Virus record (IMG/VR): IMGVR_UViG_643348551_000008
Location: 1-44,793 of that record
Length of the DNA: 44,793 nt
DNA from: a virus
Lineage: Duplodnaviria > Heunggongvirae > Uroviricota > Caudoviricetes
Reading direction: 5' to 3' (one strand)
In this document: positions 19,316 to 28,560 of the stretch, one piece after another
Layout: every line of letters starts with the position of its first letter
Position numbering within the stretch: the stretch's first letter is position 1
Position numbers and translations under genes: made by a program
Notes under the pieces: model-generated
Database searches by the model: none
What the model saw: only the letters and a program-made list of their open reading frames with translations
What the model was told of the DNA's origin: nothing

Positions 19316-22996
<3,681 letters not shown>

Positions 22997-23022
<26 letters not shown>

Positions 23023-23542
23023 TCAGCAACCCCGGTATCAGTTCATCCAGCGCGGCTGCTTTGTTCATGGCTTTGATGATATCCCGTTTCAGGAAATCAA
23101 CATGTCGGTTTTCCAGTTCCGGAAAACGCCGCTGCACCGACAGGGGGATCCCGTCGAGAATACTGGCAATTTCACCTGCGATCCGCGACAGCACGAAAGT
23201 ACAGAATGCGGTTTCCACCACTTCAGCGGAGTCTCTGGCATTTTTCAGCTCCTGTGCGTCGGCCTGCGCACGCGTAAGTCGATGGCGTTCGTACTCAATA
23301 GTCCCTGGCTGGAGATCTGTCTCGCTGGCCTGCCGCAGTTCTTCAACTTCCCGGCGCAGCTTTTCGTTCTCAATTTCAGCATCCCTTTCGGCATACCATC
23401 TTATAACGGCGGCAGAGTCATAAAGCACCTCATTACCCTTGCCACCGCCTCGCAGAACGGGCATTCCCTGTTCCTGCCAGTTCTGAATGGTACGGATACT
23501 CGCACCGAAAATGTCAGCCAGCTGCTTTTTGTTGACTTCCAT
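22997..23542 (-). CDS. nu1: Terminase small subunit Nu1
   Basis: 181-aa ORF MEVNKKQLADIFGASIRTIQNWQEQGMPVLRGGGKGNEVLYDSAAVIRWYAERDAE essentially identical to recalled lambda Nu1. Confidence 0.9.
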
Positions 23543-23735
23543 TGTTCATTCCACGGCCAAAAACAGAGAAAGGAAACGACAGAGGCCCAAAAGCTCGTTT
23601 TCAGCACCTGTCGTTTCCTTTCTTTTCAGAGGGTATTTTAAATAAAAACATCAAGTTACGACGAAGAAGAACGGAAACGCCTTAAACCGGAAAATTTTCA
23701 TAAATAGCGAAAACCCGCGCGCCTGCCGCCCCGTG
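23543..23735 (-). other. cos site (cosB/cosQ-like region, with cosN-equivalent 12-mer at 23720-23731)
   Basis: Minus-strand sequence upstream of Nu1 matches the recalled lambda left end almost base for base; the cosN-equivalent reads GGGCGGCAGGCG. Confidence 0.75.
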
Positions 23736-24148
23736 GAAGGCCTCCCCACCGGAAGGACCCACACAAATGAGAGCATTTATCATTAACATTTACAGATAAG
23801 ATGACGTACATCATTGAAACGCCATTCAGCCATATACCGGCAGCATTCGTAGTTGCACTCCGTAACTCTGCGACTAAGGTTAAAAACATGGCCCTCTTTT
23901 GCCACCGGCAAATCTTCAATGGATTTCCCCTGCCGGTTTTTTATTTTCGTCGATGCATAACATTGCATTTACATCAATAGCGGCTATTGTCATTAGTATG
24001 TTGCATCAATGCATGGGTGGTATTGGCGGTCTTCGCCGGCCGCTTCTGTGTAGCTGCTCCCTGTGACCGGTTTTTTATTTCTCACATTACAGCAACCCCT
24101 TAGAGTGAAGGGCTGCTGTAATGCCTGTTACTCAGTAACTACCGCACC

Positions 24149-24343
24149 TTACGGTAATTTCATGAAGGCAAATACCGGACAGTCCGGATGACGAGCATCT
24201 TCTGTTGCTTCCAGCATTGACTCACCAAACCACTCCGTCGTGGCGCGACCGTCAGCTGCTTTGTAGTGGATCAAGTACTGGTTTTCGCCATCCGCATACT
24301 GCGCACGGGCTTTAACCTCACCCCATTCATCACTGATGCGCAT
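24149..24343 (-). pseudogene. Hypothetical protein, apparently split by a frameshift in an A7 tract (strong SD plus ATGATG at 24424-24429 in another frame)
   Basis: 70-aa track ORF has only a TTG/internal ATG start; an SD-preceded ATGATG upstream joins this frame if the A-run 24415-24421 is one base shorter. Confidence 0.4.
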
Positions 24344-24599
24344 CTCCACCAGTTGAGACAACTCAAACTTAAACGGAGCAGCATCAGCACCAATTACAAT
24401 CGGTTTGTTTTCTGTTTTTTTCCATCATCGTCTCCTGATATCGAAGCCCGTCGCCGCACCGGGCACTGATCAACATTTGAGTATTCGCGGCGACAGAAAG
24501 AATTTATTTTATTGAATAGCCACTAACACAGAATTTCATGCTTTCCGGACGCTGGCGCACCCTTCATTTTTCAGCAAAATATTCCGCTATTACAGATGA

Positions 24600-24782
24600 T
24601 CAGTTCTGCAGACACTGCCGAACGCCATCGATAAGCTGGCAGACCTGAGAAGCCGTATCGAAAAGCTGGCGCGCCTTATCCAGGCTGACGCATCCCACCA
24701 ATAAAAAAGGCACCAGTATCGCTACCAGTGCCCATTTCGCCGCCGTTCGCGGCATTCTGTGTGTCCAGTGTTTTCTGCTCAT
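24600..24782 (-). CDS. Small membrane-anchored/lipoprotein-like protein (60 aa) in the spanin position
   Basis: MSRKHW... followed by hydrophobic KWALVAILVPFLLVGC (lipobox-like LVGC) and C-terminal Cys; AGGTG SD 4 nt upstream. Confidence 0.45.
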   Translation of the reverse strand: MSRKHWTHRMPRTAAKWALVAILVPFLLVGCVSLDKARQLFDTASQVCQLIDGVRQCLQN

Positions 24783-24796
24783 AACACACCTGGTTA

Positions 24797-25177
24797 TCAG
24801 CGTTTCAACTGAAAGTGAGGCCCGTCTTTCAGTGTTTTCCAGTCCCCACCCCATTCGATGGCAGTTCCCAGCTCTGCGGCAGCCTGCTTAAATGCCTGCG
24901 CGATTTTCTCGTACAGAGGCCAGTCCCATGACACCTGGCTGCCAATGTAGGCCACAACATCCACCGCATCACCTGTAAGGTGGCGGCTGTTCATGGTCTG
25001 GCTTTTCCCTGCCGCTACCAGCTGTTTCTGGCGATACTTACTGCGCAGACCTTCCGTGATACCAAAATCAACCTCCGTCAGCTCCAGCGCACGGCGAACG
25101 ACAGCAACCAGCTGTGGTTTGACGCCCTCCAGATTTTTTTCACTGCGACGGCTGAATCTGAATTTACCCGGCATCAT
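24797..25177 (-). CDS. Endolysin, peptidase M15 family (L-alanyl-D-glutamate peptidase-like)
   Basis: HxxGxAxD-like SRHLTGDAVDV and WGGDW...H motifs; directly after the holin-like genes. Confidence 0.65.
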   Translation of the reverse strand: MMPGKFRFSRRSEKNLEGVKPQLVAVVRRALELTEVDFGITEGLRSKYRQKQLVAAGKSQTMNSRHLTGDAVDVVAYIGSQVSWDWPLYEKIAQAFKQAAAELGTAIEWGGDWKTLKDGPHFQLKR

Positions 25178-25179
25178 AT

Positions 25180-25455
25180 TCACCTCAACAATGGAAAGAT
25201 TTTTGTGACGTTCCCGCGTGCGCGTATCACCAGCACGCAGAACAGCAGGTTAAAAAACACTTCCAGCCAGCCCGTTGCTAACGGGCGACCACACAGATAG
25301 CTGAGGGGCGCAAAGGCATACAGCAGCATCAGCAGCCAGGCCAGCCATGACATCAGCGGTTTGTGTCTGGAGTCACGACGACGATAAAAAAAGAGCGTCA
25401 GCACGATAACCGTGCATAACGCCACATTCAGCAATCCGGGAAGGTTACTTAACAT
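25180..25455 (-). CDS. Small integral membrane protein (91 aa), putative holin/antiholin component
   Basis: Two to three hydrophobic segments; GGAGG SD before ATG at 25455. Confidence 0.45.
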   Translation of the reverse strand: MLSNLPGLLNVALCTVIVLTLFFYRRRDSRHKPLMSWLAWLLMLLYAFAPLSYLCGRPLATGWLEVFFNLLFCVLVIRARGNVTKIFPLLR

Positions 25456-25837
25456 TGCCGCCTCCTCCACCCCGCAGGCGGGAGAACACACCGGACACCA
25501 GTGATGCAATATCCTGCTGGTGGATGAACGACAGAATCTTCACCGACACCACCGATACCAGCACCGCACACAGCGCATCTGCCGATGTACCGTCATACCC
25601 TGTTGTTGATGCAATCCAGGCTGACAGCACGCGCGCCCCCAGCACGCCGACGATAAACGACACCAAAAAATGCGCCACCACGCGCCAGACTGAAATCTTC
25701 TGCGGCATCGTTGCCACAAATAACGCCCCGGCGAACGCACCAAACACAATCCCGAAATCCGTTCCGGTAAACAGCCCGAATACCGTCGCCCCGCCGAGCG
25801 CCGCAGCCGTGCCGGAACCGGATAAGGGTTCAGACAT
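25445..25837 (-). CDS. Holin-like membrane protein (130 aa)
   Basis: Gly/Ala-rich hydrophobic helices with charged C-terminus; AGGAGA SD before ATG at 25837; upstream of the endolysin. Confidence 0.5.
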   Translation of the reverse strand: MSEPLSGSGTAAALGGATVFGLFTGTDFGIVFGAFAGALFVATMPQKISVWRVVAHFLVSFIVGVLGARVLSAWIASTTGYDGTSADALCAVLVSVVSVKILSFIHQQDIASLVSGVFSRLRGGGGGNVK

Positions 25838-25925
25838 ACTTTTTTCTCCTGTAAATAAAAAAGGGCCACCAGCGGCCCGTAAAAACACCCCGTCAAAGGC
25901 ACCCGCAGATGCCTTTTGTGTGGTG

Positions 25926-26078
25926 TTATTCAGATTTACGCAGTAAAGGCCGGAGCACGACCAGCGCCATCGCCACCAGCACACCATCTGCCAGCACCGA
26001 CATCAGCCGTCCGGTGAAATCCACCGCCACTACCAGAAACAGCAGGATGGCAGCCAGCACAAGGCGCGCACTTTTCAC
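25926..26078 (-). CDS. Small hydrophobic protein (50 aa, GTG start coupled to the upstream stop)
   Basis: VKSARLVLAAILLFLVVAVDF...; GTGA overlap with the stop of the TerB-like gene, GGAG 7 nt upstream. Not in the ORF track because under 60 aa. Confidence 0.3.
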   Translation of the reverse strand: MKSARLVLAAILLFLVVAVDFTGRLMSVLADGVLVAMALVVLRPLLRKSE

Positions 26079-26500
26079 AGGTACTGCTCCAGCGGTAGCT
26101 GAAGCGCCTGCGCAATTTTCTTGAGCTGTGTTTCTTCATCCGGACCAATGCCATCCTGGTCAGCGATATCCAGACACAGGCACAGCACATTAACTGCGTC
26201 ATCAGTACCTGCCACGTCAGCCAGCTGACGAAGGGCTTCAGCATTGGCAGAGCGCGGCGACGCTTCATAACGGGCGCGGATATTTGCACTCATTTGTGCA
26301 ATCTCACCGGAGAACGGCGCAAAGGCAGGAAGTGCTGCAATGGTTTTCTCCAGTACCGCGACTTCTTTCGCGTCACAGGTGTCGTCAGCATATGCAATGG
26401 AATACGCGCCCCAGACGGTCGCCTCCACTGCGTCGCGGTTCTCCATCTTCTTCACTTCGGTAATGGCCTTGCGGGTTTTCTTTTTGAAAATACCAAACAT
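26075..26500 (-). CDS. TerB-like domain protein (tellurite-resistance TerB family), cargo gene
   Basis: 141-aa ORF with the recalled TerB pattern (N-terminal MFGIFKK, ...IAYADD...DIADQDGIGPDEE...). Confidence 0.5.
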   Translation of the reverse strand: MFGIFKKKTRKAITEVKKMENRDAVEATVWGAYSIAYADDTCDAKEVAVLEKTIAALPAFAPFSGEIAQMSANIRARYEASPRSANAEALRQLADVAGTDDAVNVLCLCLDIADQDGIGPDEETQLKKIAQALQLPLEQYL

Positions 26501-26872
26501 CGTGACTTTTCCTTTTAGTGGGTGAGCCTGCGCCCGGGGGTGACCAGCCCACAGAGAAAGTCACACTGACCATCCCGTAAGCTCACCCCTGAAAGGCTCT
26601 GTGGTTTTTGATGTGCGCCGGGCGTGGCGCAAAGAAATGAAATAAGACTTACCTGAAATTAAGGTTAATCTGAGGATTTAAACCATTTTTAAAGCTTAGT
26701 AATATCAACTCGTCTCCTGAAGGAGACAGATACTTATGATTCTTCATGGACTTTGTCCCGCGGCGTTAATCCGACGGCCGCGCTTTTTTTGCGCCATATT
26801 CATCGCTAACTTACATGGCATTGCCACACGGGCATTATCAGTGTCCGTGTTTCTTTTTTTAGGGTTCAGAAT

Positions 26873-26897
26873 AAAAAAAACCGCCCGGTGGAGGCGG
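26873..26897 (-). terminator. Intrinsic terminator downstream of the tRNA genes
   Basis: Stem ccgccc/gggcgg (26881-26897) followed on the minus strand by a U8 run. Confidence 0.65.
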
Positions 26898-27178
26898 TAA
26901 AGGATGTATTTCCAGGTTTTGCTTAGTATATGATTAATCTCAATGTCATTTTTAGCGATGTTTACAACATCGGGATGACACATCACCGACCCTGTCAGGA
27001 AATACAAAATCTCCACCGACAATGCGCCATTCCGATGTTATAAAAAATCAGCACTGATACCGTAATAAATAACATTCATTACAGGACGGGATGTAGTAAG
27101 GAGTCAGGGTAAAACAAAAACATCCCACACATATAATGTGTCAGTGCCTAACACAACCTAGCATCTATTGTCCTCGGC

Positions 27179-27253
<75 letters not shown>

Positions 27254-27256
27254 ATA

Positions 27257-27332
27257 TGGTGCCGACTACCGGAATCGAACTGGCGACCCGGTGATTACAA
27301 GTCAGTTGCTTTGTCTGCTAAGTTAAATCGGC
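27257..27332 (-). tRNA. tRNA-like gene, possibly tRNA-Thr (UGU) with imperfect stems (may be degenerate)
   Basis: Acceptor GCCGATT/AGTCGGC plus CCA and T-loop TTCGATT present; anticodon loop CTTGTAA but only 3 bp pair in the anticodon stem and the D-arm is atypical. Confidence 0.4.
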
Positions 27333-27513
27333 AACGGTTCCTCGGAAAAAATAAAACGACCGATATATGCATTATTTCCCTGTCATCTCCTCGGAACTGA
27401 CTATTGATATTAATGAGGGCAAACACTATTTCAATAAACATAGTGTCAATATTAGTAAATATATGTATAAATTTCTATCACTCGTGATTGATTACAAATA
27501 ATCACACACATAT

Positions 27514-28560
27514 TTAACTATTTTCTTTTATTTCGCTTACAGTCTGGTTAAATCTCTCTTCTTCCTGCTCCACACCTATTGCATGCCGTCCCAGCGATAA
27601 TGCTGCTTTTATTGTTGATCCCGACCCCATAAAAAAATCAGCAACCAAATCTCCCGGATGGCTGCTGGCGGTAATTATCTGACGCAACATATCCGCCGGT
27701 TTCTCACAGGGATGTTTGCCGGGGTAATACTGCACAGGCTTGTGCGTCCAGACATCCGTATACGGAACAGCTGCCGATACGGAAAAATAACGCCGCAGGG
27801 ATTTGTACTCTTCCAGCAGGCTGGCATATTGCCGGTTCAGTTCACTGTATGTGCTGACCAGCTGGTGGTGCGGCTTTTCCAGTTCACCGCGTTGATGTTT
27901 TTCTGCTGCAACACGCGCAAACAACGCCTGTAATTTCAGATAATCGCCTTCGTTCGGCAACTGCCACTGACTGATACCAAACCAGTGCGAAGCCATGTTT
28001 TTCTTTCCGGTGACTTCCGCTATCTGTTTTGACGTTATACCCAGTGATTCACGCGCATCACGAAAGTAAGAAATCAGCGGAGCCATCACGTGCTGCTTAA
28101 GCTCGCGCCCCTTTGCCGCATAGCCGTCATTTTTTGGCTGATATGGCCCCTGATAATGTTCAGCAAACAGAATGCGTTCTGTTGCCGGAAAATACGCCCG
28201 CAGGCTTTCCTTGTTGCACCCGTTCCAGCGCCCGGACGGCTTCGCCCAGATAATATGGTTCAGCACATTAAAGCGCTCACGCATCATGATTTCGATATCA
28301 GATGCCAGGCGATGACCACAGAACAGGTAGAGACTTCCGGCAGGTTTCAGTACCCGCCAGAATTGCGCCAGACACTGATCCAGCCATTTCAGGTAATCAT
28401 CGTCGCCCTTCCACTGGTTATCCCAGCCCTCGGGCTTCACTTTAAAGTATGGCGGGTCTGTGACTATCAGATCGACAGAGTTTTCCGGTAAGGTCTGGAT
28501 AAATTCCAGGCAATCAGCGTTGATTAACTCACAACTGGATATTTTTACAGTATTAGCCAT
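27514..28560 (-). CDS. DNA methyltransferase (N6-adenine/N4-cytosine class, orphan)
   Basis: DPPY motif near the N-terminus and FxGSGST near the C-terminus; no adjacent restriction endonuclease. Confidence 0.8.
   Translation of the reverse strand: MANTVKISSCELINADCLEFIQTLPENSVDLIVTDPPYFKVKPEGWDNQWKGDDDYLKWLDQCLAQFWRVLKPAGSLYLFCGHRLASDIEIMMRERFNVLNHIIWAKPSGRWNGCNKESLRAYFPATERILFAEHYQGPYQPKNDGYAAKGRELKQHVMAPLISYFRDARESLGITSKQIAEVTGKKNMASHWFGISQWQLPNEGDYLKLQALFARVAAEKHQRGELEKPHHQLVSTYSELNRQYASLLEEYKSLRRYFSVSAAVPYTDVWTHKPVQYYPGKHPCEKPADMLRQIITASSHPGDLVADFFMGSGSTIKAALSLGRHAIGVEQEEERFNQTVSEIKENS

Follow-up and report, generated by a model that had tools for sequence, protein, structure and literature searches.

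The 44,793-nucleotide (nt) stretch analyzed here (the window; positions 1 to 44,793 of IMG/VR record IMGVR_UViG_643348551_000008) contains a lambdoid prophage on the minus strand. Our sequence comparisons assign its lysis genes to the known phiP27-type late lysis cassette of lambdoid prophages and suggest that the last of these genes, which encodes a 60-amino-acid (aa) lipoprotein precursor (hereafter LIPO), may alone perform the outer-membrane (OM) step of lysis, acting as a single-component, lipid-anchored helical peptide in the role of a spanin; we assign this reading a probability of about 0.45. Of the steps of phage lysis, OM disruption is, to our knowledge, the one least understood; its described agents are limited to spanins, either two-component or unimolecular, and a single "disruptin." The cassette was already known from phiP27 (NC_003356), and its lipoprotein had been catalogued as an OM spanin (o-spanin), whereas the new elements are that the inner-membrane (IM) partner appears to be missing across the family, that the published partner looks spurious, and that LIPO alternates with canonical spanins. 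The predicted lysis genes, together with an RNA element inside LIPO, are as follows.

24600-24782, minus strand: LIPO, 60-aa lipoprotein precursor, matching PHROG 7528 (unknown function; E 3e-37)
24708-24733, minus strand: terminator-like hairpin and U6 within the LIPO signal-peptide codons, conserved in homologs
24797-25183, minus strand: predicted M15 endolysin, 128 aa, matching Peptidase_M15_4 (PF13539; E 1.6e-12) and PHROG 465, endolysin (E 3e-75)
25180-25455, minus strand: holin family protein, 91 aa, matching Phage_holin_3_7 (PF05449; E 6e-22) and PHROG 217, holin
25445-25837, minus strand: putative holin, 130 aa, matching Phage_holin_8 (PF16931; E 3e-23) and PHROG 198, holin

The initial annotation of this region had described a non-lambda cassette with an M15 endolysin instead of S/R, and the family matches agree with this description. 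The open reading frames (ORFs) of 50, 130, and 91 aa, the M15 peptidase, and the 60-aa ORF that it listed are all present on the minus strand, and the single small lipoprotein-like ORF that it saw downstream is the 60-aa ORF at 24600-24782, which carries a lipobox.

Our data indicated that LIPO is a real, selected lipoprotein gene, far beyond a chance ORF, because its ratio of nonsynonymous to synonymous divergence (pN/pS) is 0.20, its ORF was intact in 87/87 loci examined, and its lipobox and cysteines are invariant. The precursor consists of MSRKHWTHRMPRTAAKWALVAILVPFLLVG followed, past the predicted cleavage site, by CVSLDKARQLFDTASQVCQLIDGVRQCLQN, and inspection for transmembrane and lipoprotein signals revealed a basic n-region, a hydrophobic core, and the lipobox L-V-G-C31. 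The mature protein (30 aa, CVSLDKARQLFDTASQVCQLIDGVRQCLQN) begins at the predicted lipidation site, Cys31, and contains Cys48 and Cys57. Across 24 aligned homologs, the lipobox, C31, C48, and C57 were invariant, and the same residues were kept in members with 58% identity. The +2 residue was V, A, or T across homologs (Val in the window) and never Asp, so that sorting to the OM is predicted. LIPO resembles an o-spanin in being a small predicted OM lipoprotein with a lipobox, without the Lol-avoidance Asp at +2, encoded in a lysis cassette; it also has, in C48 and C57, the periplasmic cysteines that are near-universal in two-component spanins, although not strictly defining for them. Conserved periplasmic cysteines are typical of o-spanins (PMC6139136). 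The pN/pS value, obtained from 54 distinct coding sequences, was 0.19-0.23 in each of three segments, compared with 0.27-0.33 for the two holins and 0.10 for the endolysin. A Shine-Dalgarno sequence, AGGTG, lies upstream of the ATG at 24782, whereas a second ATG, which would give a 51-aa form, has none, and no promoter-like site was found upstream of LIPO in the window. The mature peptide is amphipathic (hydrophobic moment, 0.5-0.65; net charge 0), with a mean hydrophobicity of -0.07, no transmembrane domain (TMD), and no proline; an AlphaFold2 model showed one long helix at modest confidence (predicted local distance difference test score, 69.5).

The LIPO family is narrow. Among 158 matches, the 120 listed all showed at least 70% identity, and a profile search over 1.8 billion representatives returned 21 clusters at 50% identity, all belonging to one family, in which a more distant branch retains the lipobox, the helix, and the C-x8-C spacing. 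All matches with a named source organism came from Enterobacterales, and a Cellvibrionaceae match (L009) that covered only the signal peptide was disregarded. No remote homolog was found by profile search in Pfam, NCBIfam, PADLOC, or PDB, and the PHROG match is to a family of unknown function. Of 5,426 complete E. coli genomes, 313 contained the LIPO region, with as many as 7 matches in one genome.

That the ORF is not a gene at all, being either a chance ORF or a stretch conserved solely for its embedded terminator-like RNA element, seems hardly credible to us. The hairpin and U-tract within the ORF are indeed conserved at the nucleotide level, synonymous divergence is lowest in the hairpin segment (pS 0.145), and the ORF is unannotated in several phage records. 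Against this, the mature part, which the hairpin does not reach, has a pN/pS of 0.19, none of the loci examined has a disrupted ORF, the lipobox and two cysteines are invariant over the 21 clusters, and the Prokaryotic Genome Annotation Pipeline (PGAP) calls it as a gene in the prophage of E. coli EC71, which shares 99.8% identity with the window over a 2.5-kb lysis-region query. The hairpin itself (GGGCACTGGTAGCGATACTGGTGCC followed by TTTTTTATT) keeps its nucleotide sequence in homologs as distant as 58% protein identity (L008, L003), and only 1.45% of 2000 synonymous recodings folded as stably; it may represent an attenuator or terminator that shares its nucleotides with the coding sequence.

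All ORFs of 35 aa or more on both strands from 23400 to 27600 were screened, in each of their start variants, for a spanin partner, the criterion being either a single N-terminal TMD with a tail of at least 25 aa or a lipobox. No inner-membrane spanin (i-spanin), no embedded or overlapped o-spanin, no unimolecular spanin, and no second lipobox ORF was found in this interval. Besides LIPO, the only candidates from the screen were ORFs in alternative frames of the TerB and holin genes and known genes shortened at their N termini; one of the former, within the TerB gene, was rejected as an i-spanin, since its TMD is weak and the corresponding segment is not hydrophobic in a related locus (L004). 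A lipobox scan of the whole window found no other phage lipoprotein, LIPO being the sole match in the prophage part, and the PGAP annotation of the EC71 prophage lists no Rz/Rz1. To extend the comparison, about 250 loci were collected by three routes (the lipoprotein, the M15 endolysin, and a GH108 endolysin). Spanin-bearing loci excepted, tblastn with lambda Rz/Rz1 gave no match in the window locus or its relatives, and neither did tblastn with the DUF2570 i-spanin of phage P88 or the spanins of loci L247, L251, and L254. In the 239 loci that pair an endolysin with LIPO, no i-spanin of the Rz, DUF2570, or L247 type was found, and no membrane protein with a periplasmic domain was common to the LIPO loci.

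The initial annotation had likewise reported no full-length i-spanin with an embedded o-spanin, in agreement with the ORF screen, the lipobox scan, and the EC71 annotation, and a canonical Rz/Rz1 pair in another frame, to which it had pointed as possible counter-evidence, was looked for and not found in the window. It had further proposed that the spanin function might be truncated, unimolecular, or absent. A truncated spanin is at odds with the lack of any i-spanin remnant in the window or in any LIPO locus examined, with the frequent abutment of LIPO on the endolysin, and with the conserved length of 60 aa, and a unimolecular spanin (u-spanin), which combines an OM-lipoprotein signal with a C-terminal TMD, does not fit either: LIPO has the lipobox, but its mature 30 residues lack the C-terminal TMD that defines the class. 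An absent function is disfavored, given that LIPO is under purifying selection and never occurs with an intact canonical spanin; in relatives, canonical two-component spanins lie downstream of homologous endolysins. A literature search for solo o-spanins found no relevant paper in the collection searched.

The closest described cassette is that of phiP27, which has the same gene set (L28 holin, L29 holin, L30 endolysin, and an unannotated lipoprotein) at ~93% nucleotide identity to the window, with a lipoprotein sharing 90% protein identity with LIPO. Unlike the window, phiP27 carries stx2e in the place of the tciA/tciB-like genes and, between endolysin and lipoprotein, a ~460-bp insert with L31 and a reverse-strand 90-aa gene. 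In the survey of Kongari et al. (2018), PhiP27 figures as a "separated" two-component spanin, and its periplasmic span, 62 residues, is the shortest recorded there, the entry (supplementary file 5) consisting of a 64-aa i-spanin at 20348-20542 and a 51-aa o-spanin at 20706-20861, the latter assigned purely by bioinformatics (PMC6139136). At 90% identity, LIPO falls within the singleton family of this o-spanin (at least 40% identity over at least 40% of the length). The possibility, named by the initial annotation as counter-evidence to its own reading, that the 60-aa ORF belongs to a known o-spanin family is to that extent partly borne out, but the catalogue call is bioinformatic only and its paired i-spanin looks spurious.

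In all likelihood, the i-spanin catalogued for phiP27 is an artefact, and its database entry is probably a false positive, because it lies antisense to a conserved gene, is broken in another locus, and belongs to a rare insert. In detail, the i-spanin frame (L001 4377-4571, equivalent to NC_003356 20348-20542) starts with TTG, matches no family, and lies antisense within the 90-aa reverse-strand ORF, which matches PHROG 36812 over its full length while being unannotated in the RefSeq record; in locus L038, the reverse gene is kept at 46% identity, whereas the forward i-spanin frame is broken. Both lie on an insert that only a few phiP27-type loci have and that the window lacks, and the frame was accordingly rejected as a partner of LIPO. 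On these comparisons, we conclude that the phiP27-type cassette comprises an o-spanin-like lipoprotein without a partner.

The same observations bear on the alternative that LIPO is the o-spanin of a genuine two-component spanin, whose IM partner would be non-canonical or undetected, such as a protein with a very short TMD, a holin-family protein, or a host protein. The published listing of a separated pair and the resemblance of the two invariant periplasmic cysteines to those of disulfide-linked o-spanins speak for it, as do tiny single-TMD ORFs found just upstream of LIPO in some relatives, namely tm44 (PHROG 4906) and c60-like (PHROG 1115). However, the published partner has the defects described above, tm44 and the c60-like ORF lack a periplasmic domain almost entirely and occur neither in the window nor in the commonest architecture, the c60-like ORF also precedes a canonical Rz in phage GER2, and apart from a holin no membrane protein is common to all loci. 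We consider such a partner improbable; as individual candidates, tm44, c60-like, and tmcc60 ORFs were rejected for their absence from the window, their lack of a periplasmic domain, and their non-universal occurrence. The PHROG 1115 ORF, tail-anchored and ~37-60 aa long (e.g., MKGIEVETPASLDLTRAAAFAIRLVAVAVLIWAVRWW), recurs directly upstream of either a lone LIPO or a canonical Rz (L256 1630-1782; also many other loci, such as L144, L081, and L075) and is not found in the window; it may be an unrecognized lysis accessory.

Two further observations concern cassettes of this kind. In a survey of Shiga toxin (Stx) phages, the Rz pham was present in 277 of the Stx phage genomes, and the metallopeptidase endolysin was confined to a small separate cluster (PMC8136144). 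A record named "Actinobacillus phage vB_Apl-pPE4" (PP818812.1; L002) contains this E. coli-type cassette at 93% nucleotide identity, and its attribution to the host Actinobacillus pleuropneumoniae looks doubtful.

The distribution of spanin genes suggests that one functional slot is filled by either LIPO or a two-component spanin, because LIPO and an intact canonical spanin are never found together and the one LIPO copy situated beside Rz has decayed. An endolysin with LIPO and without a canonical spanin was present in 239 of 253 loci, an endolysin with a canonical two-component spanin and without LIPO in 3, an endolysin with neither in 7 (several with LT-II toxin genes after the endolysin), and LIPO without an endolysin match in the locus in 4, while LIPO and a canonical spanin coincided in 0 of 253, an exclusivity statistic that draws on closely related loci, three spanin-bearing counter-examples, and one pseudogenization event. 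In L247 and L251, the same Hol8-Hol3_7-GH108 modules are followed at offset 0 by an 89-92-aa i-spanin with an overlapped 69-71-aa lipoprotein; in L254, an M15 endolysin is followed by two small ORFs and then a lambda-like Rz/Rz1 pair; and the P2-like phage P88 has a homologous M15 endolysin and, after it, a DUF2570 i-spanin together with an overlapped, proline-rich o-spanin. A LIPO copy meets a canonical Rz, itself preceded by the c60-like ORF in GER2, in one lineage only, that of phage GER2 (L256 2989-3180) and the Stx2a prophage of E. coli O104:H4 (L257). There the unannotated copy lies between Rz and the terminase genes of a 933W-like Stx2a phage and has three in-frame stops, and this decayed allele is identical in 43 complete E. 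coli genomes.

The genomic context points in the same direction. In the collected loci, LIPO always lay downstream of the endolysin and in the same orientation, and it was present in 79/79 loci retrieved via the M15 endolysin. The preceding endolysin was either M15_4 or GH108 with PG_binding_3, and the holins were either Phage_holin_8 with 3_7 or a single Phage_holin_3_1. As judged from these neighborhoods, LIPO is tied to the lysis module and not to the virion module, because it follows M15 and GH108 endolysins while the terminase and tail modules differ among the loci. The spacing between endolysin and LIPO was 0-25 nt in 57/149 distinct sequences, as in the window, where 15 nt separate the endolysin stop from the LIPO start, and the two genes sometimes overlap.

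These features have to be weighed against a different explanation, in which the cassette has no dedicated OM disruptor and LIPO is an accessory or moron lipoprotein with a superinfection-exclusion, receptor-masking, or envelope-modifying role, comparable to Cor, Llp, and Bor, located in the moron stretch between lysis genes and cos. Small phage lipoproteins with exclusion, masking, and envelope roles are known, and the interval from endolysin to cos hosts LT-II toxin genes, an Ais-like phosphatase, KilA-N genes, and other inserts, which part LIPO from the endolysin in ~60% of the distinct sequences; a 70-aa PHROG 1935 gene often accompanies LIPO at +420 nt downstream, and the decay of the GER2 copy could be ordinary moron loss. 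In contrast, LIPO shares the late-gene orientation, often begins 0-25 nt past the endolysin stop or overlaps the endolysin, has no promoter-like site of its own in the window, and occurs without an intact canonical spanin in all 239 loci. Its linkage to the endolysin also persists across unrelated virion modules, whereas exclusion lipoproteins would usually be expected to accompany receptor-binding genes. An accessory role appears to us rather unlikely, although it is the most serious of the alternatives. Concerning the PHROG 1935 gene, it travels with LIPO at the fixed distance in many loci and is a 115-aa ORF in phiP27 (L33), whereas the window has 30-aa and 70-aa ORFs at 24149-24476 (minus strand), an apparent split that reflects either a frameshift or a different start.

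In the proposed lysis pathway, the Phage_holin_8 and Phage_holin_3_7 proteins would, by family membership, permeabilize the IM, and the signal-less cytoplasmic M15 L-Ala-D-Glu endopeptidase would cross the holin lesion and degrade the murein. LIPO would be exported by Sec and lipidated at Cys31, displaying a 29-residue amphipathic helix whose invariant C-x8-C cysteines probably form an intra- or intermolecular disulfide. After the loss of murein, it might destabilize the OM or fuse it to the IM without a phage-encoded IM partner, serving as a lipid-anchored, single-component functional analogue of the Rz/Rz1 complex. Tentatively, and with less confidence than we place in the lone action of LIPO, this would make LIPO a third class of phage OM disruptor, a solo lipid-anchored helix of ~30 residues with C-x8-C and no IM partner, the published phiP27 classification resting on a spurious i-spanin.

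Comparison with known systems showed both likenesses and differences. As in the two-component spanins lambda Rz/Rz1 and P2 LysB/LysC, the last cassette gene encodes an OM lipoprotein precursor of ~60 aa with conserved periplasmic cysteines, but the window cassette has no i-spanin, and the mature LIPO of ~30 residues is too short to bridge the periplasm. Lambda Rz1 contains 10 Pro in 40 residues (PMC6139136), whereas mature LIPO is predicted to be helical and has none. Like LIPO, the u-spanin gp11 of T1 is encoded by one gene that closes a lysis cassette, and its product starts with an OM-lipoprotein signal; however, gp11 also possesses a C-terminal TMD and a beta-rich periplasmic domain and is devoid of periplasmic cysteines (PMC6139136), in contrast to the helical LIPO with its two invariant cysteines. 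The nearest functional precedent is the disruptin gp28 of phiKT, a 56-aa amphipathic peptide that complements a lambda spanin defect, in which, as proposed for LIPO, a short amphipathic helical peptide alone replaces the spanin at the OM (10.1101/515445). LIPO fits the disruptin idea only loosely: gp28 is cationic and was described without a lipoprotein signal (10.1101/515445), whereas LIPO, while amphipathic, has a net charge of 0 and is predicted to be lipid-anchored, and the two share no sequence similarity. In the Serratia ChiWXYZ type 10 secretion system, ChiX is a close homolog of the window endolysin (5opz, E 1.5e-43). ChiX belongs to a chromosomal secretion locus with ChiW, ChiY, and ChiZ (PMC4259817), whereas the window endolysin lies in the late operon of a complete prophage and is followed by a lone lipoprotein.

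Several points weigh against LIPO acting alone as the OM disruptor. A helix of 30 residues measures ~4.5 nm and cannot span the periplasm as a classical spanin bridge, the neutral charge of LIPO departs from that of cationic disruptins, and a terminator-like hairpin lies inside the gene. In the remaining ~60% of the 149 distinct endolysin-LIPO sequences, inserts of 250-1250 bp intervene, including small tail-anchored or single-TMD ORFs (PHROG 1115 and PHROG 4906), KilA-N genes, and the phiP27 insert, and the stretch from the lysis genes to cos is a known moron hot spot with LT-II toxin and Ais-like phosphatase inserts. Moreover, lambda Rz/Rz1 mutants still lyse without added divalent cations, so that a cassette could simply lack the function, and the narrow base of the exclusivity statistic given above belongs to the same side of the balance.

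If LIPO does act alone, a lone 30-residue lipopeptide would offer a minimal and genetically tractable model of membrane disruption from the periplasmic side. LIPO-bearing prophages include Stx2e-, Stx2k-, and LT-II-converting ones, and LIPO would then also be relevant to toxin release from these prophages. Our analysis corrects the phiP27 i-spanin catalogue entry and indicates that cassettes of this kind can be mislabeled when a spanin search demands an i/o pair.

The other members of the cassette are assigned by family membership. The endolysin is, from its family and motif matches, an M15 L-alanyl-D-glutamate endopeptidase. Its PF13539 score of 48.2 bits exceeds the cut-off of 25, and the zinc-ligand motifs, H-x6-D and a distal H, are conserved, the zinc-site motifs SRHLTGDAVD (SRHLTGxAVD) and GPHFQL aligning with those of ChiX; besides ChiX, its relatives in the PDB include the T5 endolysin (2mxz, E 3e-23). 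The hydrophobicity profile revealed no signal, signal-anchor-release sequence, or hydrophobic segment in the protein, and the enzyme is therefore predicted to be holin-dependent. PGAP places its start at 25174 (125 aa). Both putative holins are small proteins with multiple predicted TMDs, encoded upstream of the endolysin, and both score above the Pfam gathering thresholds (Phage_holin_8, 82.5 bits against 26.4; Phage_holin_3_7, 77.9 bits against 25.4), with three predicted TMDs in the 91-aa protein and three to four hydrophobic segments in the 130-aa protein. A homolog of the latter, a 130-aa MSEPLSG... holin, is needed for SOS-induced release of Stx2e, and its deletion was complemented in trans (PMC12571312).

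The features surrounding the lysis genes are as follows.

21097-23022, minus strand: large terminase, lambda-type, downstream of the lysis region
22997-23542, minus strand: Nu1-like small terminase subunit, downstream of the lysis region
25863-25878, minus strand: terminator-like hairpin and T-run, just upstream of the first holin start codon
25926-26078, minus strand: DUF3927/TciB-like protein, 50 aa, two TMDs, matching PF13064 and PHROG 1470, "TciB-like"
26075-26500, minus strand: TerB/TciA-like protein, 141 aa, matching PF05099 and PHROG 632, "tellurite resistance"

The EC71 prophage has the order integrase, Q antiterminator, tRNAs, TerB-like, DUF3927, two holins, M15 peptidase, 60-aa "hypothetical protein," packaging, head, and tail. 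By its gene content, the TerB-like and DUF3927 pair is a moron resembling tciA/tciB of P1 and not a set of lysis genes, because it is present in only some related loci. A TerB-domain protein is followed by a small DUF3927 membrane protein, as in P1, the TerB-like gene shares ~80% nucleotide identity with P1 tciA, and in phiP27 the place of the module is occupied by stx2e. The earlier inclusion of the 50-aa protein in the lysis cassette is not upheld, given this patchy occurrence of the DUF3927 module. In the lysogen, the hairpin at 25863-25878 probably sets the lysis genes apart from the moron, with Q-modified polymerase reading through. Another terminator-like hairpin lies at 26880-26898 (minus strand), upstream of the TerB-like gene, and the two hairpins match the layout of a late operon under Q antitermination into which a moron has inserted between tR' and the holin. 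Further upstream of the cassette, a single tRNA-Gly (TCC) is encoded at 27179-27253 (minus strand), whereas the EC71 prophage has three tRNAs there (Arg, Thr, and Gly) and phiP27 has Ile and Arg, and the tRNA/moron region from Q to the holins is highly variable.

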